Virus record (IMG/VR): IMGVR_UViG_3300012006_000002
Span: 1 to 64,000 of that record
DNA length: 64,000 nucleotides
Reading direction: 5' to 3' (one strand)
Source of the DNA: a virus
Of this stretch, positions 15,920-61,956 are shown in pieces; positions within the stretch are counted from its first letter, which is position 1, and the number at the start of each line of letters is the position of its first letter. The position numbers were made by a program, and so were the translations under genes. The notes under the pieces are model-generated. The model had not been told where the DNA came from. It ran no database searches and saw only the letters and a list, made by a program, of their open reading frames with translations.

Positions 15920-16515
15920 TGAGTTTTATCGTAAGCAGCGGTGGTGGTGCAAGCGCAGTTACTCGGATTTATACTACGACGCTTGCATCCGACACAGCCT
16001 CAGTAGATATCACTGCAATACCTCAAACGTATACGAATCTGGAATTAATTGTGCATGCCGCCGGGACTTCTTATGTACGCACTGTTGGAATATATTGCAT
16101 CCCGTTTAGCGGTGTCAATCAATCATCTTATCTGGTCAATGGATATCAACAGGAACAGTTTTACTCGGGATCTAGCAGCCCAAACGGTTCGATTTTGAAT
16201 TTTACGAGTGACGCTACTGCGGGGATTATGCCGGGAAGCCAGTCAAATCCCGGCCCGGCGCAATACTTGTTTGGAACTACCAAGATATTTTTGACAAATT
16301 ATTCCTCTGCTACATCATCAAAAGGATGGATGTCAGAGTCTCACCATTCAGGGACTAATAATGCGTCGGTAAATACCAGCACATTGTTTCACAGTGCGGC
16401 GCATTTTTCCCAAACAAACTCGGTTCAATTAGGGGCCATTGATAGGCTGTATGTCTATCCAACCAGTGGTAATTTTCGAACAGGATCAGTATTTACGCTC
16501 TATGGATGGTCATGA
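15919..16515 (+). CDS. Fibre tip-like protein
   Basis: ITAIPQTYTNL...GSVFTLYG domain shared with 8175 and 27731; ATG overlaps upstream TAA. Confidence 0.65.
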   Translation: MSFIVSSGGGASAVTRIYTTTLASDTASVDITAIPQTYTNLELIVHAAGTSYVRTVGIYCIPFSGVNQSSYLVNGYQQEQFYSGSSSPNGSILNFTSDATAGIMPGSQSNPGPAQYLFGTTKIFLTNYSSATSSKGWMSESHHSGTNNASVNTSTLFHSAAHFSQTNSVQLGAIDRLYVYPTSGNFRTGSVFTLYGWS

Positions 16516-43589: not shown

Positions 43590-44426
43590 ATGCCATTTAA
43601 ATGGAAAGACAAAATTGTTAGTTTTGGAAGTTCAAGTAGTGATCTTGCTGTAAGTGCAGGAACTTCCTATACAATTCCAGCAAACACAACTTCTCATTGG
43701 GTCAATGCAACCATTTCGGGAAACCTCTACGTACATAGAACCGCAGATTTTAGAGTAAGTGGAACTTTGACTATTGGATCCACGGGAAATATAATTGCAG
43801 TAAACAATGTCGCGGGAGAATCTGGGTCAGGAACCGCTTATGCTGCAACGACGGCTGATGACACGTTGCCCGCTTCTTCTAACGGAGCGAACGGAACTGG
43901 TGCTGGTAAAAATTCTCTTAAAATTATGGCAAATAAACTTATAAATAATGGGACTATTAGTGCTAGTGCGGACTATAACAATACGAATAGCGGAACTGGA
44001 GCTAGTGGCGGATTCATATGGATTATTTCTCCTGATATTTCAGGAGGGGCAGGAATAAGGATAAGTTGCGATGGCGCTGAAGGAGGTCCAGCTTGGGCTA
44101 GTGAGAGATATTGCGTAGGCAATGGGGTGTGGTTTGCTAATTGTGCCGGTGGCGGTGATGGGTGCTATAATTATGGAGGCTCCGAATATGTGTCGGGAAC
44201 CTCCGGTAAACACAACTCCTCGTCGGAAGGAGAATACTGTGTTGGTGGCGGGTCTGGACCCAAAGGAACGTCAGGAACAGCTTCATCTATTCTCATCGTC
44301 ACTTCTAAGAATCCATCTGGAGGAACAGCAAGCAATCAAACAGTTTCTTTGGATACTACCATGAAAAGTTTGTCTCTTGGTACAATTCTTTGGTTTGAGG
44401 AAAATAAACAATGGAATACACCGTAA
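43590..44426 (+). CDS. Gly/Cys-rich fibre-associated protein
   Basis: GTISA...GASGGFIWIIS beta-helix-like pattern; follows the long fibre. Confidence 0.6.
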   Translation: MPFKWKDKIVSFGSSSSDLAVSAGTSYTIPANTTSHWVNATISGNLYVHRTADFRVSGTLTIGSTGNIIAVNNVAGESGSGTAYAATTADDTLPASSNGANGTGAGKNSLKIMANKLINNGTISASADYNNTNSGTGASGGFIWIISPDISGGAGIRISCDGAEGGPAWASERYCVGNGVWFANCAGGGDGCYNYGGSEYVSGTSGKHNSSSEGEYCVGGGSGPKGTSGTASSILIVTSKNPSGGTASNQTVSLDTTMKSLSLGTILWFEENKQWNTP

Positions 44427-46185: not shown

Positions 46186-46557
46186 GTGGCGCGCGCAAAT
46201 AATGTAGTGGATGCGGAGTTCACAATGGAAGAGACGGAAGTCATTGCCAGCAATCCTGAAGCGACGGACGAGGCCATGGAGTACGATCAGTTCGTTGACG
46301 TACTTGCAGACGGCAAGTACGGTGGCGAAATCTGGGCTGAAGCTGAGCGCGAGAAGATCCGGGCACAAGCAGAGATTCGGCTCTCCAGCAAGCGGAACAA
46401 TGAGCAGCGACTCAATGCTGCGACAGAGCGTCTTCGGAAGGCTGTTGATGACCAGAAGGCTGTCGAGGAGGAGTTCCCCTCTGCGCAGAAGTGGGGCAAG
46501 TACTACATCTCCCTAGAGGCTGTAAACGCCAAGCAGGCTGAAGCCAATACTCCATAA
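46186..46557 (+). CDS. Hypothetical acidic helical protein in a stand-alone transcription unit
   Basis: AAGGAG SD 8 nt before GTG; GC3-rich codons; own promoter and terminator. Confidence 0.8.
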   Translation: MARANNVVDAEFTMEETEVIASNPEATDEAMEYDQFVDVLADGKYGGEIWAEAEREKIRAQAEIRLSSKRNNEQRLNAATERLRKAVDDQKAVEEEFPSAQKWGKYYISLEAVNAKQAEANTP

Positions 46558-48600: not shown

Positions 48601-49017
48601 ATGATAAAATTGTTTACTTATTTTGCTCAAGCCGGTCTTTCTTTTGGCATTTTTACTCCTGAAGAACAAGCATTTATTTCGTCTATTATTGACGATATTC
48701 TTGCTTTAGTGATGGCGTTAGCTATTGCATCAGTTGCTATTGTTGGACCAATGCTTTTGAGGTCTGTGCAAAAAAAAGTTGAAACTTCTCATCATGCCAG
48801 TCAATGGGAATTATTGGCAACAATAGCAACTTTTGCAGTAAAGTCTGCACAGCAAACCATTGATCATGAAAATAAAACACTTAAATTTGATTACGCATAT
48901 AAAATAGTTGAAACTATGGCTCAAAAAAATGGAATTAAATTCATGACCGAAGAACTTGGAAGAGTGCTTATTGAGTCTGCGGTACACACCATAAAGAAAG
49001 ATACACCAAGTACATAG
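48601..49017 (+). CDS. Holin (LL-H-like)
   Basis: One TM segment, then AVKSAQQ...KFDYA...LIESAVH, typical of the LL-H holin family. Confidence 0.75.
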   Translation: MIKLFTYFAQAGLSFGIFTPEEQAFISSIIDDILALVMALAIASVAIVGPMLLRSVQKKVETSHHASQWELLATIATFAVKSAQQTIDHENKTLKFDYAYKIVETMAQKNGIKFMTEELGRVLIESAVHTIKKDTPST

Positions 49018-50231: not shown

Positions 50232-50747
50232 ATGCCTTCATTCAAAGAACTCTACGAGCCTGTTGCAAGATTGGCTGCAAGAGAGAACAACATCAACGAG
50301 AATATTTTTTGTGGTTTGATTACCATAGAAAGTAAATGGAACCCAAATGCAGTCAACCCGGACTCTGGTGCTGCAGGTATTGCTCAGATCATGAGGATCT
50401 GGCATCCCGGAGTGAATGTTTTCAATCCTATTGAATCCTTGTACTATTCAGCAAAATTAATACGATCATATTTGAATGTATTCAATGGTGATTACGACTG
50501 GGCATTGGCGGCGTATCACATGGGAATCTCTACGGTAACATCCATGCATACTACATCGGGACAGTTACCATTTTACGAGTTACGTAATTACGTCTATCCT
50601 GTGAATCAATTAGCAATGGAATGCGTCATTCATCAGCCAGTATCAACGCTTATCCCCTCAGTGATGCCTAGCGTTACTCCTGAGGCGTCCTTGCTTGATC
50701 CCCTGTATCTTCTTCTTCCATTGTTGTTTGCCTTGCTTAAACAATAG
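50232..50747 (+). CDS. Lytic transglycosylase (SLT) with C-terminal hydrophobic tail
   Basis: ESKWNPNAV...GAAGIAQIM...ALAAYHMG; ends LLDPLYLLLPLLFALLKQ; GGAG SD. Confidence 0.85.
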   Translation: MPSFKELYEPVARLAARENNINENIFCGLITIESKWNPNAVNPDSGAAGIAQIMRIWHPGVNVFNPIESLYYSAKLIRSYLNVFNGDYDWALAAYHMGISTVTSMHTTSGQLPFYELRNYVYPVNQLAMECVIHQPVSTLIPSVMPSVTPEASLLDPLYLLLPLLFALLKQ

Positions 50748-50749
50748 AT

Positions 50750-51010
50750 TTATCCTCTCGGCGCAATTTCTCGCGAAAGAGGGGTTGCGTCGGTTGATCT
50801 GGTATCGGTCGAGCTTTCAGAAGCTGCATTTTTTGCCCGGAGACTTGTGCTGTAGAATGTTCCCGTAGCCGCACCGACGACACCAGTAAGGACCGGGATA
50901 GCTCCGGGATTTTCTACTACTACGGCAAGATAAATAATTGCCAATATGGACAAAAACCCAATAACAACACCAGCGTACTCAAAAATTGTCGGCGGCTCTT
51001 GAAGTTTCAT
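50750..51010 (-). CDS. Small two-TM membrane protein
   Basis: AGGAG SD before ATG at 51010 on the minus strand; two hydrophobic segments. Confidence 0.7.
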   Translation of the reverse strand: MKLQEPPTIFEYAGVVIGFLSILAIIYLAVVVENPGAIPVLTGVVGAATGTFYSTSLRAKNAASESSTDTRSTDATPLSREIAPRG

Positions 51011-51065
51011 TATGTTACTCCTCATTTATAGTATATAATTATACTTAATAAATACAGTGCCTTTT

Positions 51066-51152
51066 GCTGGGATGATGAAATCGGTAGACATACCTGACTT
51101 AAAATCAGGAGGCGGACATTCCGTCGTGCGGGTTCGAGTCCCGCTCCCAGCA
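51066..51152 (+). tRNA. trnL: tRNA-Leu (anticodon UAA)
   Basis: Acceptor GCTGGGA/TCCCAGC, discriminator A; anticodon arm CCTGA-CT-TAA-AA-TCAGG; long variable arm; T arm GCGGG-TTCGAGT-CCCGC; CCA incomplete (CCT). Confidence 0.97.
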
Positions 51153-51154
51153 CC

Positions 51155-51183
51155 TTGCTAGAGTTGATTCCGTCTGCTATACT
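51155..51183 (+). promoter_or_regulatory. sigma70-type promoter with degenerate operator
   Basis: TTGCTA-17 bp-TATACT, TG extension; spacer contains GTTGATTCCGTC. Confidence 0.65.
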
Positions 51184-51200
51184 GTAGGCAGGAGGACACG

Positions 51201-51515
51201 ATGAATAATTGGCGCGAAAATGATGAACGAGTCATCACAGCCAAGGATACTCAAGACGCACTTCGCATCATTGCGCTTGCGCAGCGTGGGCATGGTTTGA
51301 CGAGGTTCAGGATTATTGATGAACCCGGCTCCGGCCCTCTGGTTGACGAAATCAACAAGTGTGCCGCAGGATGGGGTGTCGGATACGACACGCTAGAGAA
51401 GTATCGCCAGTTCCTGAACAAATCCCGCCCCGGCCACGGGCTTCGCATTACCATTGATCCGATGTGTTACCGGCGAGGCGCAGACTTGATCCGCTCTCTG
51501 AAGGGGTTCATCTAG
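51201..51515 (+). CDS. Hypothetical protein
   Basis: AGGAGG SD, own promoter. Confidence 0.75.
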   Translation: MNNWRENDERVITAKDTQDALRIIALAQRGHGLTRFRIIDEPGSGPLVDEINKCAAGWGVGYDTLEKYRQFLNKSRPGHGLRITIDPMCYRRGADLIRSLKGFI

Positions 51516-51522
51516 ATCGGGC

Positions 51523-51551
51523 TTGACAAGCGTTCCCGCTTGGCTTATAGT
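51523..51551 (+). promoter_or_regulatory. Near-consensus sigma70 promoter driving a non-coding unit
   Basis: TTGACA-17 bp-TATAGT; contains CAAGCG-TTCC-CGCTTG palindrome. Confidence 0.8.
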
Positions 51552-51556
51552 TGAGA

Positions 51557-51705
51557 TGTCGCGTCGGCATCCCCCTTGCTAACCAGTTGCCTTACTGGGG
51601 ACGCGACAAGGCAGCGCAGATACAGAGCCTGTAGTTCTGTAGATTCGTTGTCTACCCGCCTGAATCCCCTTCGGTTTGGAACAAGACCGAAGGGGATTTT
51701 GCTTT
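51557..51705 (+). ncRNA. Candidate structured small RNA (~150 nt) of unknown family
   Basis: Bounded by promoter and terminator; 9-bp P1 closing a three-way junction, second long hairpin, possible pseudoknot; no convincing SD/ORF. Confidence 0.65.
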
Positions 51706-51706
51706 C
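51663..51706 (+). terminator. Intrinsic terminator
   Basis: AATCCCCTTCGGTTT-loop-AGACCGAAGGGGATT followed by TTGCTTTC. Confidence 0.85.
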
Positions 51707-51739
51707 AGTTTCTGACAATTTCCCAGTATTCGCTCGATG

Positions 51740-51768
51740 TTGACGAAACCGTCTGCATTGTGTATACT
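51740..51768 (+). promoter_or_regulatory. sigma70 promoter with GACGAAACCGTC operator
   Basis: TTGACG-17 bp-TATACT; operator 51742-51753 overlaps -35. Confidence 0.8.
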
Positions 51769-51819
51769 TGATGCAGGTGGCCCGCCCAAGCCGGAGTCGC
51801 CAGAAAGAAGGAAGGCACG

Positions 51820-52371
51820 ATGCCCTGCCACGACATTCTTATTGAAACAGCAATCAAGCAAGTGACCAATGAACAGATCAGCGAGACTGTTCCGATGTGG
51901 GACATGATGGCATCTGTCCTTACCATTGATGTTCCCAATGATTTTGGCGCTCGTCCAAATTACGAAAACAATTTGGTTCTTTATCGAATGGCCGGAGGGT
52001 CACTAGATGCAGAACTTGTGCAGCGATACCAGCAGTCCTACGTTGCGCGACAGATCTTTGCCGCACTGGAAGCAGACGGCTACGAAATGCACGCCTACGT
52101 CTCTCCTGATCATGAGGGAACTTGGGTCATTAACGCCAGAGATGTGACTCGAAACGCAACCATCGGCGTTGTTGTCTACAAGACTCTTGAATTTGAGATT
52201 GATTTTCTCGATGTACTTCATGATGATTCTGTCTGGCTCGTGGGCGGTGAATTTGGTCGAGTCATAGAGAAAGTCCAAGCAATGGGACTTGCGACAGAAG
52301 TTGTTAAAATGGACATTGACAACAACGCAAAAGCAATATATTCACAAGAATCAAACGCTTTGTATTCATAA
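51820..52371 (+). CDS. DUF1257(Ycf35)/DUF2997-like protein, putative AAA+ ATPase partner
   Basis: MPCH..IETAI start, LVQRYQQSYVARQIFAALEADGY helix, Y.QE-type ending; near a Ycf46-like ATPase; family call from memory. Confidence 0.5.
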   Translation: MPCHDILIETAIKQVTNEQISETVPMWDMMASVLTIDVPNDFGARPNYENNLVLYRMAGGSLDAELVQRYQQSYVARQIFAALEADGYEMHAYVSPDHEGTWVINARDVTRNATIGVVVYKTLEFEIDFLDVLHDDSVWLVGGEFGRVIEKVQAMGLATEVVKMDIDNNAKAIYSQESNALYS

Positions 52372-52389
52372 AATAGAAGGTAAAATAAA

Positions 52390-53325
52390 ATGGACGCCAA
52401 ACACAAAGAACGCGCACTCATTGTTTCGGATATTCACAGTAACGCACATGCATTGCGCGCAGTTATTGATGATGCAACCAAGGCATTAAAGGGAAGGAAA
52501 AATTTTCACGCATCAGGGCTTCCGTTTCACGAAATCTGGTGCGTTGGCGATCTTGTTGGCTACGGACCTGAGCCGAACGAAGTCATTGACATGCTGCGCA
52601 AATTTCAAAAAGAAGGCATTGCTGTTCACGCGGTAAAGGGAAACCACGATACTGCTGTCGCTGGAATAACAAATGCAAGAGATCACATGCACACGGCAGC
52701 AGCTCAGTGTGCAGAACATAATGCCTCAATCATAACTCCAGAAAATCAGCGTTGGCTTGCAAGTCTTCCAGATACTGCTCAAGTTGGCCCAAAGATCGAA
52801 AATCCTGCTGGATTAACTGGAAGCCGAAGCATGTTCACGCTTGCTCACGGAACTCCAGACAGTCCGCAGGGAACGTATGCAGATTCATATGAATCCGCGC
52901 TTTACGGATTAGATCATCTTGATGCGGATCATGAACACACTCCGTATACTCCTCATGTCATTGTTGGTCATACGCATGATCCGAGGGCTTTTCAGTTTGA
53001 TCCGGATCATATCGTCGAACACCCTGCCGAAGATGGATCATTTCCATTCCTTGGTCCTGCAGCAAATGATTATTCCTTGTTGCACAATGACAAATTGCAC
53101 ATCTTGAATAATCAAGGAAACGGCCGATTCGTGATCAATCCCGGCAGTGTCGGGCAGCCTCGCGATCACGACCCGCGTGCATCCTACGGAATTGCTGAAG
53201 TAACTGCTTCGGGTATTCGCATCATGCACCGCAGGACTCCTTACGATGTTCCGTCCGTTCAAAAGAAGATGAAAGCCGAGGGTCTGCCCGCCTCGATGTA
53301 CCAACGTCTTTCCCTTGGGCGCTAA
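52390..53325 (+). CDS. Metallophosphoesterase (YfcE-like phosphodiesterase)
   Basis: SDIHSN, GDLVGYGP, GNHD, HGTP, GHTH, NPGSVGQPRD.DPRASY. Confidence 0.92.
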   Translation: MDAKHKERALIVSDIHSNAHALRAVIDDATKALKGRKNFHASGLPFHEIWCVGDLVGYGPEPNEVIDMLRKFQKEGIAVHAVKGNHDTAVAGITNARDHMHTAAAQCAEHNASIITPENQRWLASLPDTAQVGPKIENPAGLTGSRSMFTLAHGTPDSPQGTYADSYESALYGLDHLDADHEHTPYTPHVIVGHTHDPRAFQFDPDHIVEHPAEDGSFPFLGPAANDYSLLHNDKLHILNNQGNGRFVINPGSVGQPRDHDPRASYGIAEVTASGIRIMHRRTPYDVPSVQKKMKAEGLPASMYQRLSLGR

Positions 53326-53338
53326 ATATCTTTTCCCC

Positions 53339-53367
53339 TTGACATAGACGAACCCGTCGTATACACT
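53339..53367 (+). promoter_or_regulatory. sigma70 promoter with GACGAACCCGTC operator
   Basis: TTGACA-17 bp-TACACT; operator 53347-53358 in spacer. Confidence 0.85.
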
Positions 53368-53417
53368 TGTTCTAGGCGGGAATCCCGCCCAAGGACTCTC
53401 CGAAAGGAACTACTCTT

Positions 53418-55346
53418 ATGGCCAGTACCGAAATTGCTCCCAGCCCCGAGTGGGCAAAGACCGTCGTCAAGAAGTACCTCACTGGAGAAGGCCATGCCTA
53501 CCTTCTCTATGGGCCGGGAATTCATGACATCAGCGCCTTGTCCTACGACCTGCACGCCAATCTGTATCACACGTTTGGCAACAAGGCGACGCCCAACAAG
53601 CCCGTGCAACTTGACTTCGATATCGTTGTTCGTTACGACCGCGTTGCTGGGTTCCGGTTCATTGGAACGGAAAAGAAGCGCAGCGATGATCGTGAGCGAT
53701 TCAAGGCAATCGTCGAGAAGATTCGTGCCAACGCTCCGGCTGGCGCAGCAAACGCAGCAGGAATTCGCGGAGGAATGTCTAGCGGAATTTCTTCCGCTCC
53801 AAAGTCGGATATCTTGGAACAATCCAAGAATCCTGCACTCGCCATTCCGCTATTGACTGACGCGCTTTCTCAAAGCGAAGTGCGACTGTGCGTTATTCTG
53901 GATGAGTTCCAGAGTATTTGTCCTCGTGGCGATTGGGACAAGATTGGCGAAATGTTCACCAATTGCATTATTGCCGCAAGATCATGGGGTCTGGACTTTG
54001 ACAACATAGGTGGTCATGGTCGTAAATGGACCAAGGGTGGGGCTGGGCACATTATTATCGGTATAACCGATGATAAGTCGGAAATCAATGCCGCCCTCTC
54101 AAAGGGACGTAGCATTTCTGGCTGGATTCCGATCAATGTCGGCTTTCCTTCTCCAGTAGAGCGCGAATACTATATCTCTGAGAGGGTCATGACCCCGGCA
54201 TACCTTGAACAGGTCGAGATTGACTTTGGCGACAATGTTGCCGAAGAAGACCGGGCAAAGTGGCTGGCAAGTGCAACTGGCGGACTGAGTATTCGCGCTA
54301 TCGAAGACATGCGCCTTGCTGGCGACCGTCACCGCATGCTTACTCGTGACATGGTTCAGAAGATTATCAATGAAACCATTTCCGAACAGTTTGCTGGTCA
54401 GGGCGGATCCGAGTACCTGACGGTCATCAATCCCACAAAGGGTCTTCGCGACTATGGGTTTCCGGCGTATCTGATTGAATACATGGAATGGTTTATCAGG
54501 CAATTCCGTGCTGGCAAACTCAGGAACGCAAACATCCTTGAGGCTGGCCCTCCCGGCACCGGAAAGAGCATCCTTGCGTATGCCTTGGCCTACGAACTTG
54601 GATACAAGTGCGTTCACTGGAGTCCTGCCCTCACTCAGAGCAAGTGGGTAGGGGATTCGGAGAAGCAGACGCAGCAGGTGTTGGACTGGGTTGAAGCCAA
54701 CCTTCCTTGCATGGTTTTCATTGACGAAATCGACGTTGCGCTTACCTCGCGCGATGGCGGCGTTGGTGATAGCTCCGGGGTTGGATCAAAGATGCTTAGC
54801 ATCTTGATGCCTTGGCTGGAGCGGGACGAAATCAAGGGCAAACTTCTTCTTGTTGGCGCAACAAACCGTGCTGATAACATTGATGCAGCAATGAGGCGTC
54901 GCCTGCAGACAGTTCTTCCTATTCTTCCTCCAATGACACCAGAAGATCGTCGAGCGGTATTGGAGAATGTTCTTATCCGCGAGCAGGGCATAGATCGCAA
55001 TTTGATCGAAATCCCAGAAGAAGTTGTTGCAGACGGTGCTACAAAGTGGTACACACAAGCCAACTTGTCTATTCTTGCTGAGAAGGCAGCGTCTATTGCC
55101 TCACGGAAAGGCGATGAGTTTTCATCACGAGTCGGACATTTTCTCCAACTGGCTTCCGCTTCATACCGTGTTGATACAACGCGCACGGAAGCACTCTCCT
55201 ATCTTGCTGCTTCTCAGTCATCTGATACCGACCTTCTTCCTCCGGGCTTTCAAGTGAAGCAGGAGCGGGAAGTCAAGAAAATCTTGCGAGAGATTGAGGC
55301 AGATGATGACGATGAGGTCGGGCCTAGCGAACGGGGAGTTCGCTAG
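53418..55346 (+). CDS. Double-domain AAA+ ATPase (Ycf46/CDC48-like, first domain degenerate)
   Basis: D2 has GPPGTGKS, VFIDEID, GATNRADNIDAAMRRR; D1 retains only YLLYGPGIHD and CVILDEF. Confidence 0.92.
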   Translation: MASTEIAPSPEWAKTVVKKYLTGEGHAYLLYGPGIHDISALSYDLHANLYHTFGNKATPNKPVQLDFDIVVRYDRVAGFRFIGTEKKRSDDRERFKAIVEKIRANAPAGAANAAGIRGGMSSGISSAPKSDILEQSKNPALAIPLLTDALSQSEVRLCVILDEFQSICPRGDWDKIGEMFTNCIIAARSWGLDFDNIGGHGRKWTKGGAGHIIIGITDDKSEINAALSKGRSISGWIPINVGFPSPVEREYYISERVMTPAYLEQVEIDFGDNVAEEDRAKWLASATGGLSIRAIEDMRLAGDRHRMLTRDMVQKIINETISEQFAGQGGSEYLTVINPTKGLRDYGFPAYLIEYMEWFIRQFRAGKLRNANILEAGPPGTGKSILAYALAYELGYKCVHWSPALTQSKWVGDSEKQTQQVLDWVEANLPCMVFIDEIDVALTSRDGGVGDSSGVGSKMLSILMPWLERDEIKGKLLLVGATNRADNIDAAMRRRLQTVLPILPPMTPEDRRAVLENVLIREQGIDRNLIEIPEEVVADGATKWYTQANLSILAEKAASIASRKGDEFSSRVGHFLQLASASYRVDTTRTEALSYLAASQSSDTDLLPPGFQVKQEREVKKILREIEADDDDEVGPSERGVR

Positions 55347-55349
55347 GCC
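55321..55349. repeat. Perfect 12-bp inverted repeat spanning the AAA stop codon
   Basis: GGCCTAGCGAAC-GGGGA-GTTCGCTAGGCC, no U tract. Confidence 0.85.
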
Positions 55350-55372
55350 ACACTGCCCCGAAAGGAATTATC

Positions 55373-55696
55373 ATGAGTACTTTTAAAAACAACACGTCGC
55401 TGCCAATATTCAGAGATCCAAAATTTCAAGATATGTTAGTCAAACAATTTGAATACTCTATGAAATCAAATATAGAAGAATTATTCAATGCAATTGAAGA
55501 AATGATGAATCTAGATCATATGAAAAATCCAAAGTATACATCTGATGTGTATGACAAAATAGCAAAAGCAACACATAATCTCAGATTCCGATTGATTCAT
55601 TCACTTCCTGATTATCAAATTGACGACACTGTCGACCAAATTGTGTCGCAGATCATGGATAGTCTTTCCAATATGCCGACCGAATACCCCCACTGA
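55373..55696 (+). CDS. AT-rich hypothetical protein (moron-like)
   Basis: AAGGA SD; visibly more AT-rich than its neighbours. Confidence 0.7.
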   Translation: MSTFKNNTSLPIFRDPKFQDMLVKQFEYSMKSNIEELFNAIEEMMNLDHMKNPKYTSDVYDKIAKATHNLRFRLIHSLPDYQIDDTVDQIVSQIMDSLSNMPTEYPH

Positions 55697-55697
55697 C

Positions 55698-55726
55698 TTG
55701 ACACCGACGAATCCGTCTGATAGTAT
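55698..55726 (+). promoter_or_regulatory. sigma70 promoter with GACGAATCCGTC operator
   Basis: TTGACA-17 bp-TAGTAT, TG extension; operator 55706-55717. Confidence 0.85.
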
Positions 55727-55761: not shown

Positions 55762-57291
55762 ATGACCGTTACTCTTACGAACCCGCAAACCCTAGAAGAA
55801 CAGTCCGAATCGCTACGCCAGCAACTTGGGCTGGAGGTGGCTCCCAAAATCATCAATCCTGATTCAGTCACAAAGATTTTTGAATCCGGCGTCTTGGCAA
55901 ATGTTCGCGTGACCGCTGAGCGATTCAACTTTTCCATCAAGTTGTCTGACTTGGGAATTGTTCCTACTCGCGAAAACCGAAAGGAAAAGTTGGTTAGCGC
56001 CATCGACTCGGTTCTCAGAAATTCTCAGCGCGCATCTTTGCTGCCCAAGGATGAAATGTTCCATTACGTGGATGGCAAGAAAGTTGCCATTCCCATGCCA
56101 GAGATTACTGACCGGGCTGTAAGGTTCTTGTTTCCCACTCGCTACGACGAGGATAAGGGACCGGCTTCTGCTTCTGAAGCATCATGGGATGCCATTCCAT
56201 TGTATGGAATGACTTTCATTCCGCTCGCTTCTTGGGTTCGCTGGAGCAAGCAGTATGAAGAGGCGAAGACAGAGCATCTTCGTGCGGCACAACTCATCGT
56301 TGATAACTATGATCGACTGAGGAGTGCATCAGTCAATCATTACGTGCAGATTGCCCTTGATGTGTACAACCGGCTTCAGAAGACTGCGCCTCAGCAATTG
56401 ACGCGCACTATCCAGTTGAATGACCTTACAGCGCGACGCTTTGGCGGAACCGCTGGCGAGTCAATGGAGGTGCAGATCACACCTGTCCAGTGGGTGCGTC
56501 GCTGGAAGCGTGTTGTTCTTCGCGCTTGGCCCACCAAGCAAGATATCATCAATAAGTATCGAGTAGATGCCAAGTTTTTTTGGGCACCTCTGCCGTCCAA
56601 GGTTGCCGAAGACCGCATTCTTGCTGATGAAAAGATTCGGAATCGAAACTCTGAAAATACTGCAATCAGTCAGATCAGGGATGTTGTGAATAGCACCATG
56701 TCTTCTCAGGCGCATGAACTTACAGTGTCTTATGTCAGAACTATCGTAGAGCGCACCGAGATGGTTTTTCTTGGATTTCTCAACTTTGTTCAGAATGACA
56801 ATCGTGCAATTTCTCCCAGACAGTTAAATGCAGTACTCCGTGTCGTAGATATGATCAGCCAGATGACAGCGGATGTGTCTGGACTTGATGGAATCAAGCG
56901 TCAGGCGGAATTGATCGAGGCATATGTCGAGCAAAGCAAGTCGCTATTAGCTTCATCTTCGAACAAGAAGGGTCGCAAGTCTACTGCTGAGGAAATTTCC
57001 AAGGATCTTCCGAGCATTATTGCACAAGCAGTTCAGATCGTTCGCGAAGAGGCCGAGTCACTTATCGGATTCGAAGCGCGCCGGACAGTGTACTCAGCCG
57101 AAGACCCGATGCAAATTCTTGCCTCCATAAACTCTTCCCAGTCAGGTCAGTCTCCAGTTGTTCGTCGCGCGTCAGTCAGCACAGAGGATGACGCTGTCGA
57201 ATTTATCGAATGGGAAGATACTGACGCCCACGAGCCGCTGCCTCTCGATGAGCAGGAAGATGAACTTGCCGCAGTCCGCCGCGTGCGATAA
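55762..57291 (+). CDS. Helical protein, DUF3150-like
   Basis: GVLANVRV...LSDLG...SLLPK...GMTFIP...IVDNYD...WPTKQDIINKY pattern; GGAG SD; family call from memory. Confidence 0.55.
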   Translation: MTVTLTNPQTLEEQSESLRQQLGLEVAPKIINPDSVTKIFESGVLANVRVTAERFNFSIKLSDLGIVPTRENRKEKLVSAIDSVLRNSQRASLLPKDEMFHYVDGKKVAIPMPEITDRAVRFLFPTRYDEDKGPASASEASWDAIPLYGMTFIPLASWVRWSKQYEEAKTEHLRAAQLIVDNYDRLRSASVNHYVQIALDVYNRLQKTAPQQLTRTIQLNDLTARRFGGTAGESMEVQITPVQWVRRWKRVVLRAWPTKQDIINKYRVDAKFFWAPLPSKVAEDRILADEKIRNRNSENTAISQIRDVVNSTMSSQAHELTVSYVRTIVERTEMVFLGFLNFVQNDNRAISPRQLNAVLRVVDMISQMTADVSGLDGIKRQAELIEAYVEQSKSLLASSSNKKGRKSTAEEISKDLPSIIAQAVQIVREEAESLIGFEARRTVYSAEDPMQILASINSSQSGQSPVVRRASVSTEDDAVEFIEWEDTDAHEPLPLDEQEDELAAVRRVR

Positions 57292-57335: not shown

Positions 57336-59474
57336 ATGCCTGTGACAAGTACGCTAGAGGACACTCTCTCCATCCTTTTTTCATATGTCGATAAGGGATG
57401 GAATATTTTCCCAATAGAAAAGAATGGTAAACGCCCAGTTGTTGTAAGCCGGGGGAAGGATAACTCTGGAGAAGAGTTTGAGGTTAGATTGAAGTGGAAT
57501 ACATTTCAATACAACAAGAATACCAAGGATCAGATAAAGACTTGGTATTCTCAGTTTCCGGAGTGCAACTGGGCAGTTGTGTGCGGCAAGATATCAAATC
57601 TTGTTGTAATGGATGTGGATGGGGATCTGGGAATTGCTTCTCTTCAAAAATTTCATCCGGAAATACAATCAACAAAGACATGGATGCAAGCAAGCCCACA
57701 TGGGTTTCACATGTTTTTTCTACACCCCGGCAGTGACGTAAAAAGTTTCCCTATTCTGCCAAAAGTTGACATCAAAGCAGATGGTGGATACATTGTTATC
57801 CATCCATCAAAAATTGATGAAGAGCAGTACAGAATCCTGATTGAGGCTCCCCTTGCAACATGTCCGGGGTGGATCGTCCGTGGTGAATCCTCACGAGACG
57901 ACAATGAATCTGAGGCTGCCCCCGTTTCTGCCGAAAAGACCAGACCCCAATGGGTTTCTGATCTTATTGCTCATGGCTCTCCTTCTGGAACACGAAATCC
58001 AGACGCTGCTCGCCTTGTAGGATATTTCTGGAATAAGGGAATAGGCAAGGACATTATCGAGACCATCATGGCTCCATGGGCGGAGCGTTGTCAGCCTCCC
58101 TTTTCAATGAGAGAACTTCAGACAGTGATTCGAAGCATTTGTTCATATCAGCAAATGGCAAAGAATCACGGAGTGGTTGACCCTCCTACGATGAGTTCTA
58201 GTGGTACTGGCATGAAATACACTTGGCATACGTTCAAGGTGGATATTGTCATATCAAAAGTTCTGGATACTGATCGCTTCGGACTTGTTGGGGAGTGGGA
58301 GGTGCAGACGAATGGCATTCCCTCCCTGCCAAAATATCTCTATGGCCCCGTGGCAGTTACAATGAAGGACGGACAGAAATTGTCCGCGCTGGTCACGGAA
58401 CTTGAGAAGCGGATGTTTGGACCTCCGTGGCGTCAGATGGTCAGTGACGTAGCGCGGCTAAGCATCGGTCAGTTCACTCGGGGGCAGCCATGGAGCCTTC
58501 TGCGAGATGCGCCCCGCGCACAGCAGATGGGATACGCACACAGGCCTCTCCTGTTGGCCAAGGAACCCACCCTTTGGTTCAGCGCGGGTGGTGGCATGAA
58601 AAGCTACCTAGCCCTCGCTCTGGGCATACAAATGGAAACGGGCATTGATCTTGGGCTGGGAACTCCGCTGGTCCGGAATCATGTCGCGTACCTTGACTGG
58701 GAATGGGATATTGGCCAACATGCGCGACGATTGGATACAATAATATCTCCGTCAGACCAAGAGCGACTTGGCGTCAATATTGTCTACCGGAATTGTGGAG
58801 GCAGACCGCTTCGCAATCAGATTGACGAACTAAAGCGACTTATCGCACAAGAAGGAGTGACGTATGTCATTATTGACTCTGCTAGTCCTGCTTGTGGTCG
58901 TGCTAGCGATAATGACGAGATTGTGGCGTTCTTTCAGAGCATCTCACAACTCAACGTGGGGTCATTAATTCTCGCTCACATCACGAAGAATGATAGAAAT
59001 TCTCAGGATGATGTCCAAACTGCTTTCGGTGGAGTGCAGTGGGAGAATCAGGCTCGATCAACGTGGCATATCCGCAAGGTTCAGGAAGAGGGAAGCAACA
59101 TATCCGACCTCGTCATGACACACCAGAAAATAAATGCTGGTGCAATGAATCCCCCGATTGCGATACGATTTCAATTTCCTTATGAAGACGAGCCGGGTGG
59201 ACTGGTAAGTTTCCAGATGATGAATCCCTCTGATCTTTCTCCTGAATCACTGAAAGACAGCGGGATAAGTTTCAGGGATAAGATTAAGTTTGTCCTGAAA
59301 AACAAATCCATGTCGGTAGAAGACATTGCCGAGGCCATGAGCATGAGTCCATCACCGGGCTTGGTCAATACCCTTAAGGCCATGGAGCAGAACACCCTGA
59401 CACGAATCGTGAGGAATGTCGGTGGCCAGCAGGTGGAGTGCTGGGGGCTTCGGTTTGGACGAACAGCAGATTGA
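57336..59474 (+). CDS. Bifunctional primase-polymerase, PriCT and RepA/AAA_25-like helicase fusion
   Basis: GWNIFPI, NWAVVCG..LVVMDVD, GFHMFF, DIKADGGYIVIHPS; GTRN..AARLVGYF; YLDWE, VIIDS, LILAH; start may be GTG 57342. Confidence 0.9.
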   Translation: MPVTSTLEDTLSILFSYVDKGWNIFPIEKNGKRPVVVSRGKDNSGEEFEVRLKWNTFQYNKNTKDQIKTWYSQFPECNWAVVCGKISNLVVMDVDGDLGIASLQKFHPEIQSTKTWMQASPHGFHMFFLHPGSDVKSFPILPKVDIKADGGYIVIHPSKIDEEQYRILIEAPLATCPGWIVRGESSRDDNESEAAPVSAEKTRPQWVSDLIAHGSPSGTRNPDAARLVGYFWNKGIGKDIIETIMAPWAERCQPPFSMRELQTVIRSICSYQQMAKNHGVVDPPTMSSSGTGMKYTWHTFKVDIVISKVLDTDRFGLVGEWEVQTNGIPSLPKYLYGPVAVTMKDGQKLSALVTELEKRMFGPPWRQMVSDVARLSIGQFTRGQPWSLLRDAPRAQQMGYAHRPLLLAKEPTLWFSAGGGMKSYLALALGIQMETGIDLGLGTPLVRNHVAYLDWEWDIGQHARRLDTIISPSDQERLGVNIVYRNCGGRPLRNQIDELKRLIAQEGVTYVIIDSASPACGRASDNDEIVAFFQSISQLNVGSLILAHITKNDRNSQDDVQTAFGGVQWENQARSTWHIRKVQEEGSNISDLVMTHQKINAGAMNPPIAIRFQFPYEDEPGGLVSFQMMNPSDLSPESLKDSGISFRDKIKFVLKNKSMSVEDIAEAMSMSPSPGLVNTLKAMEQNTLTRIVRNVGGQQVECWGLRFGRTAD

Positions 59475-61463: not shown

Positions 61464-61798
61464 TGTCGGATTTGAGTGTCCGGGCGTTTGATCAAGCACA
61501 ACGAAGAAAAAGATATCCAGAAAGAAGAGGGTCTCTTGGTGTCGCTTGCATGCAAAGAGATATTATTACTGCGCAAAAATACTTGTCAATTGCATCTGAG
61601 ATTCTGTGGCAGACATCAATTGATAAAGAATATGAAATGCCTATATTAATGACGGCAGAATCAAAATTACAGCACACACTCAATGAATGTCTGGCGAAGG
61701 CTGGATTGCAGTTATTGCAATTAAGTGGATGCTTGGGAATAGATTTTGTTACGCTCATGCGACAACGCCTTGAAAGAGAAGAATTGGCAGTACTCTAA
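61463..61798 (+). CDS. Hypothetical helical protein (weak MazG-like ending)
   Basis: ECLAKAGLQLLQLSGCLGIDF ending; catalytic acidic residues not evident. Confidence 0.55.
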   Translation: MSDLSVRAFDQAQRRKRYPERRGSLGVACMQRDIITAQKYLSIASEILWQTSIDKEYEMPILMTAESKLQHTLNECLAKAGLQLLQLSGCLGIDFVTLMRQRLEREELAVL

Positions 61799-61956
61799 TG
61801 GCAAATAAATTAAAATATAAATCAAAAAAAAAGAAGTATTATTGTTCAAATTGCGAAAAGGAAACAATTGAACATAATGGAGAAAATGACATTACAAGAA
61901 GATGCAAAATATGCAAGAAAGATTGTGTCTTTATTCCCTATGAGGAGGAATGGTGA
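61798..61956 (+). CDS. 52-aa zinc-ribbon protein (absent from the ORF track)
   Basis: MANKLKYKSKKKKYYCSNCEKETIEHNGENDITRRCKICKKDCVFIPYEEEW; TAATG and TGATG overlaps at both ends. Confidence 0.75.
   Translation: MANKLKYKSKKKKYYCSNCEKETIEHNGENDITRRCKICKKDCVFIPYEEEW

Follow-up and report, generated by a model that had tools for sequence, protein, structure and literature searches.

Short operators at early promoters are an established means of phage regulation, among them lambda OR and OL with CI and Cro, the operators of P22 Arc and Mnt, and the dispersed C1 operators of P1. [quoted passage not shown] The stems of such PeSL elements are long G/C tracts that form stable terminators, and there are ~50 of them per genome (PMC2839356, PMC4122927). 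Here we analyse the first 64 kb (64,000 nucleotides, hereafter the window) of the 102,766-bp IMG/VR record IMGVR_UViG_3300012006_000002, from an uncultured freshwater phage, in which the 12-base palindrome GACGAAnCCGTC lies within the core of those promoters, of the sigma70 type used by host RNA polymerase, that open the early/replication block. The feature is real and limited to one lineage and three or four promoters. On balance we lean towards the 12-mer being a protein-binding operator that switches the genes for a 183-amino-acid protein, an AAA+ ATPase and a 509-amino-acid protein together, probably by repression.

Exact matches to GACGAANCCGTC occur three times in the window (51742, 53347 and 55706) where 0.01 would be expected, and none of 100 shuffled windows contained three. 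All three are intergenic, in a record of which ~4% is intergenic DNA, and each lies inside a TTGAC(A/G)-17-TAnnnT core promoter. An independent consensus scan listed five promoters, P1 to P5, that match the consensus at 9–11 of 12 hexamer positions and all have spacers of 17 nt. These promoters and the dyads within them are:

51155-51183, plus strand: promoter P1, TTGCTA (51155-51160)-17-TATACT (51178-51183), with a TGn extended -10; drives the gene of a 104-amino-acid orphan protein.
51163-51174, plus strand: degenerate site GTTGATTCCGTC of P1, in the same register as the P4 and P5 sites.
51523-51551, plus strand: promoter P2, TTGACA-17-TATAGT, which does not have the motif; drives a structured RNA of ~150 nt.
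51527-51542, plus strand: P2's own dyad in its spacer, 6+4+6, CAAGCG-TTCC-CGCTTG.
51740-51768, plus strand: promoter P3, TTGACG (51740-51745)-17-TATACT (51763-51768).
51742-51753, plus strand: P3 site GACGAAACCGTC, overlapping the -35.
53339-53367, plus strand: promoter P4, TTGACA (53339-53344)-17-TACACT (53362-53367).
53347-53358, plus strand: P4 site GACGAACCCGTC, at spacer positions 3-14, ending 3 nt before the -10.
55698-55726, plus strand: promoter P5, TTGACA (55698-55703)-17-TAGTAT (55721-55726), with TGn before the -10.
55706-55717, plus strand: P5 site GACGAATCCGTC, at spacer positions 3-14, ending 3 nt before the -10.

A preliminary description of this DNA had placed the three sites within 17-bp-spacer sigma70 promoters, two of them ending 3 nt before the -10 (P4, P5) and one overlapping the -35 (P3), and all of these coordinates check out. 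The degenerate copy it reported at 51163 does indeed stand in the P4/P5 register of P1: it has three mismatches against the 11 specified bases, shares TCCGTCTG with P5 at 8/8 positions, and by our estimate at least 8/11 matches in one fixed register would arise by chance with a frequency of ~1e-3. The whole-record scan that it proposed yielded no exact copy beyond the three in all 102,766 bp; coding DNA, where the motif might have been equally frequent, contains none. In its generic form, GACG-N4-CGTC, the palindrome occurs five times in the 102.8 kb, three of these being the promoter sites. The two further copies (79251 and 99447) were set aside as coding or cassette DNA with no promoter boxes, the former being coding and the latter one variant of a different, non-palindromic box of a cassette array.

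The only close relative recovered is a short metagenome contig (L041), which tests conservation at P5 only, P3 and P4 being uncovered. Compared with the window phage its amino acid identities are 93% for the ATPase, 78% for the 509-amino-acid protein and 38% for the upstream 107-amino-acid open reading frame (ORF). The P5 counterpart of L041 is TTGACA ctGACGGTTCCGTCtgg TATTAT and its site reads GACGGTTCCGTC, in which the half-sites are kept at 8/8 positions, the changes being the two central bases (AA to GT) and two flank bases. The site of L041 is in fact the better palindrome, GACGG-TT-CCGTC (5+2+5), with arms GACGG/CCGTC where the window phage has GACG/CGTC. An alignment made with MAFFT of P1, P3, P4, P5 and the L041 copy of P5 brings all five into register end to end on the motif, with a 6-nt insert in P3 between motif and -10. 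The spacers of P4 and P5 agree at 11/11 specified motif positions and at 1/6 of the other spacer positions, while P3 keeps the same 11 bases 6 nt further from its -10 than do P4 and P5, and the motif is therefore not a mere passenger of the hexamers. It is the best-kept part of these paralogous promoters, and these comparisons argue for selection that acts on the 12-mer itself, beyond shared descent. How quickly a spacer can change is seen in two of the more distant relatives described below, L032 (5314-5343) and L033 (5315-5343), in which the leader is identical and the flanks are ~90% identical, yet the promoter spacer differs at 8/18 positions and by one indel; an unconstrained spacer therefore drifts fast in this phage group.

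Tail and lysis genes fill 160-50747 on the plus strand (holin at 48601, SLT lysin at 50232) and are followed by a 91-amino-acid minus-strand ORF and tRNA-Leu at 51066-51154. The plus-strand block from 51155 to ~67 kb then comprises early/replication genes, in the order 104-amino-acid orphan, structured small RNA, 183-amino-acid protein, metallophosphoesterase, 642-amino-acid AAA+ ATPase, 107-amino-acid protein, 509-amino-acid protein, primase-helicase and RuvC-like nuclease, with genes for Pol III alpha, thymidylate synthase, DHFR and an N6_N4 methylase beyond the window. The genes next to the promoters, and the leader boxes of P3 and P4, are:

51781-51790, plus strand: leader box CCCGCCCAAG of P3, 13 nt after the -10; one of two exact copies in the window.
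51820-52371, plus strand: 183-amino-acid core gene, which every relative has, in each case after a gap that bears a promoter or a terminator.
52390-53325, plus strand: metallophosphoesterase gene, inserted in this lineage only and lacking in 10 relatives.
53384-53393, plus strand: leader box CCCGCCCAAG of P4, 17 nt after the -10, within the hairpin GGCGGGaatCCCGCC.
53418-55346, plus strand: 642-amino-acid AAA+ ATPase core gene.
55373-55696, plus strand: 107-amino-acid variable gene, lacking in the distant relatives and with 38% identity to its L041 counterpart.
55762-57291, plus strand: 509-amino-acid core gene, followed by the primase-helicase gene at 57336-59474.

Neither the 183- nor the 509-amino-acid protein has a Pfam match at E below 0.01. 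Ten relative loci, with ATPases 65-71% identical and including a 184-kb record (G003) that is 97% complete, have the order 186-amino-acid gene, one promoter, 183-amino-acid gene, ATPase, 509-amino-acid gene, primase; in 2/10 a terminator-like hairpin takes the place of the single promoter. The 104-amino-acid orphan, the small RNA, the metallophosphoesterase and the 107-amino-acid gene occur in none of the ten. P4 and P5 thus lie directly after inserted genes that the relatives lack, and the second and third core genes, respectively, come immediately behind them. Set against the ten relatives, the lineage-specific inserts (50750-53325 and 55373-55696) comprise the 91-amino-acid membrane ORF on the minus strand, tRNA-Leu(TAA), the 104-amino-acid orphan, the small RNA, the metallophosphoesterase and the fast-evolving 107-amino-acid ORF. 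Four of the relatives conserve a sequence TTGACA-18-TATCCT within the ATPase coding sequence, near its 3' end (L032 7742-7771, L033 7742, L038 3658, L039 7733), ~100-220 nt before the 509-amino-acid gene, which may be an internal promoter; its counterpart in the window is TTGATA...TCTCCT.

The simplest reading of the gene order is that copies were made of the single promoter along with the site that controls it, keeping the three core genes co-expressed after the operon was split. The ancestral state would be that of the relatives, with three core genes in one operon under one promoter; accessory genes would then have been inserted between the core genes in this lineage, and each core gene would have gained its own promoter copy with the same operator. 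The putative regulator, sequence-specific and probably a small dimer, would sit on the spacer at P4 and P5 and, weakly, at P1, and on the -35 box at P3, excluding RNA polymerase and switching the 183-amino-acid, ATPase and 509-amino-acid genes jointly. We infer repression, rather than activation, as the probable mode from the position of the site only, since it covers the spacer or -35 of near-consensus promoters, where repressors act. The preliminary description had spoken of a repressor-controlled regulon. A real, non-random cis element, confined to core promoters, kept in L041 and compatible with an operator, agrees with this; the extent of the regulon has to be cut back to three or four promoters that point the same way, cluster within 4.6 kb and head one early/replication block, and whose likeness is partly one of descent. 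Should the 12-mer be an operator, it would mark a small switch that times the replication-block genes of a phage widespread in fresh water, and would offer a way to capture a regulator that escapes every profile. The comparison with relatives suggests that copying a promoter along with its control site may be how a phage holds genes under common control after insertions. Early sigma70 promoters with a palindrome in the spacer are a frequent design in phages and in the literature, and in this respect the gain is incremental.

Like the operators of lambda, P22 and P1, the element is a short site with dyad symmetry that lies over the -35/-10 region of sigma70 promoters and recurs at several of them in a single phage, with exclusion of RNA polymerase as the expected effect. 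It differs in having one 12-bp site per promoter instead of tandem 17-bp sites and in the lack of an adjoining repressor gene, no Cro/CI-type helix-turn-helix (HTH) protein having been found in the record or in the 97%-complete relative. An analogue came from scans of IMG/VR. The full architecture TTGACANNGACGNNNNCGTCNNNTANNNT gave 4 unrelated matches, only one of which is of interest, in L081 (IMG/VR 2545824653_000004, 2050-2560), an unrelated phage contig of 33% G+C in which CGACGAAAACGTCG occurs twice between divergent XRE genes encoding a Cro-like (63 amino acids) and a CI-like protein. A TTGACA-17-TATTAT promoter contains one copy, at positions 2-15 of its spacer, with the core GACGAAAACGTC at positions 3-14 and hence in the register of P4 and P5. 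This palindrome is longer (14 bp), is present in two copies and belongs to a classical temperate switch in an unrelated genome; the arrangement nevertheless implies that a site of this kind can serve as an operator. The same database returned 22 matches to TTGACANNGACGAANCCGTC, none with an in-register -10-like hexamer and mostly in GC-rich contigs, which we read as chance matches, and 0 matches to a tighter P5-type pattern.

Several observations weigh against an operator. Strict symmetry in the window extends over 4+4 bp only, which is short, and the asymmetric GACGAA is common to all three sites. Measured between their centres, the arms are 8 bp apart, short of the single helical turn that is usual for classical HTH dimers. 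Conservation in relatives, on which the preliminary description let its reading depend, is mixed: the half-sites are kept in L041, one short contig that speaks for P5 only, and in none of the ten distant relatives was the 12-mer found near this block. P1, P3, P4 and P5 are moreover paralogues with leader boxes in common: the only two exact copies of CCCGCCCAAG in the window are those in the P3 and P4 leaders, and AGGnGG follows shortly after the -10 in P1, P3 and P4, so that part of the likeness between promoters is due to common descent. The main rival explanation builds on this paralogy, taking the promoters as cassettes that need no trans-acting factor, with the motif a relic of an ancestral promoter that was copied with accessory-gene insertion; the copies may perhaps be kept alike by recombination, as are the PeSL elements of T4-type phages. 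We regard this as rather unlikely, though well worth taking seriously. The end-to-end alignment of all five promoters, the shared leader sequences, the position of P4 and P5 directly after genes that relatives lack, and the common GACGAA all fit descent, P2 likewise carries a dyad in its spacer, and the dyad of a PeSL can be situated in the spacer or extend over the -35, beside orphan genes (PMC2839356). Mere copying does not account so readily for a likeness of P4 and P5 spacers that is confined to the motif (11/11 inside, 1/6 outside), for a motif that survived the 6-nt register shift in P3, or for L041 half-sites that were kept while the neighbouring sequence drifted, and three or four copies are few against the ~50 of RB49 and phi1. 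Both systems consist of a series of near-consensus sigma70 early promoters in paralogous copies, with a dyad between the boxes or over the -35, adjoining accessory or orphan genes that vary between relatives. The arms here are only 4-5 bp, folding no better than shuffles, and the AT-rich upstream tract is not evident; nor was a terminating stem-loop found, with 4-bp arms and fold z-scores of -2.1 to +0.9, or a recombinant junction between promoter copies. With short arms, folding no better than shuffles and few copies, we have not filed the window sites as PeSL elements.

The dyad might also be thought to act at the RNA level, forming in read-through transcripts a hairpin followed by the U-rich -10 region that attenuates or marks the transcript. 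A site inside promoters with a T-rich -10 downstream does match the PeSL design, and the P3 dyad extends to an interrupted stem of 10 pairs (z -2.1). The stems at P4 and P5 are only 4 bp, however, the other folding energies are no better than those of shuffles (z -0.7 to +0.9), and 0 GACG-N4-CGTC sites are found among the listed terminator-like sites; the case for an RNA hairpin role is weak and we consider such a composite promoter-terminator very improbable. The leader hairpins behind each promoter are individually unremarkable (z -0.3 to -1.85). A protein factor borrowed from the host, through which the early genes would respond to host state, would agree with the failure to recognise a phage regulator, and other phages do borrow host factor sites. 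The preliminary description had allowed for a host factor, but a scan for TTGACA-NN-GACG-N4-CGTC-N3-TAnnnT in one genome for each of 185,579 species lends this no support, giving 68 matches where ~69 are expected by chance (596 Gb, two strands, 17 fixed bases). The matches are scattered over unrelated taxa and phyla with no freshwater group enriched, and the distant relatives, presumably growing on related hosts, do not have the site. We consider a host site improbable. Six genomes (L095, L107, L116, L124, L137 and L147, from Thiohalomonadaceae, Acidihalobacter and Thiodiazotropha) have in common a promoter-like site, TTGACA-TTGACGT(A/T)(T/A)ACGTCAAC-TAGATT, whose spacer contains a perfect 16-18-bp palindrome and which looks like a conserved, putative host operator.

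If the 12-mer is an operator, its regulator would be an unrecognised phage protein, a product of the missing ~40% of the genome (the record is estimated to be 59% complete) or a host protein. The preliminary description stated that no obvious repressor lies in the window, and none was recognised in the record. The HTH_3, RHH_1 and Sigma70_r4 profiles found no match in six frames of the 102-kb record, HTH_3 none in three relatives of which one is 97% complete, and Pfam recognised no regulator among ~45 ORFs, ten of them from the cassette array and others from the group of small ORFs between 59.4 and 62.5 kb, where a 52-amino-acid zinc-ribbon ORF lies at 61798-61956; these negatives, too, count against an operator. 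The two small proteins put forward earlier, at 46186 and 51201, have not been identified as regulators. The former, gp46186, sits in the tail/lysis (late) block and has a weak tail-fibre-assembly match (Caudo_TAP, E 0.0016, below the cut-off), and looks like a tail-fibre chaperone. The other is the orphan behind P1:

51201-51515, plus strand: gp51201, 104 amino acids, pI 9.4, a lineage-specific orphan and a speculative regulator candidate only.

This basic protein is lineage-specific like the motif: its gene comes first after P1, the promoter with the weak site, and is missing from all the relatives in which the motif is lacking. Two very large searches (1.8 billion representatives) returned one homologue only, 94% identical, and structural models are poor (Atlas pLDDT 0.45, AlphaFold pLDDT 52) and unusable for a fold search. 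An apparent internal GHGL repeat was unsupported by BLASTP of the two halves. One could imagine that gp51201 is a DNA-binding protein of new fold that arrived with the operator as a lineage-specific package, weakly autoregulating and shutting P3, P4 and P5, with triplication of the operator-promoter keeping the three-gene AAA+ module co-regulated after the operon split, but we hold out little expectation of this.

Two other roles for a dyad at this position were considered and rejected. A MerR-type spacer operator needs an over-long spacer of 19-20 bp, and all spacers here are 17 bp. A GANTC (CcrM-type) methylation site is found only in P5 (GAATC) and P1 (GATTC) and is absent from P3, P4 and L041; an N6_N4 DNA methylase is nonetheless encoded by the phage (71746-72513 of the record, minus strand, Pfam E 1.6e-28), adjoining the genes of Pol III alpha, SNase, DHFR and thymidylate synthase.

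The record has 45% G+C. In contrast to lambda, P22 and P1, the phage gives the appearance of a large lytic one, ~175 kb in size, with no lysogeny genes seen. Megablast of the region against GenBank phages gave no match. The stretch is listed in public freshwater, lake and river metagenome runs from 13 studies; four freshwater or lake-water runs that we examined hold near-identical contigs with fragmentary cover, mostly of the same strain, and one contig from the public runs, 3.4% diverged, spans P5. The RNA driven by P2 (51523-51706) is ~150 nt long and highly structured, with a strong terminator at its end (minimum free energy -74.7 kcal/mol, z -7.9); it has no match in Rfam, which recognised only the tRNA, and is absent from all relatives examined.

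On the minus strand of the record, 98137-98164 and 100614-100641 are two identical promoters, TTGACAGTCCCGACCACTGCTATATACT, in which an inverted GGGTCGG/CCGACC pair flanks the -35 and which are part of an array of repeated cassettes; near 99447 a third copy, a variant, happens to contain GACGATGCCGTC. Strong promoter-like sites also lie antisense to the structural block, at 16089-16118 (minus strand) of the window and at 43737-43766 (minus strand) of the 184-kb relative G003, and both carry a CCG...CGG spacer dyad, CCGCTAAACGG in the window and CCGCGTTTAACGG in G003.

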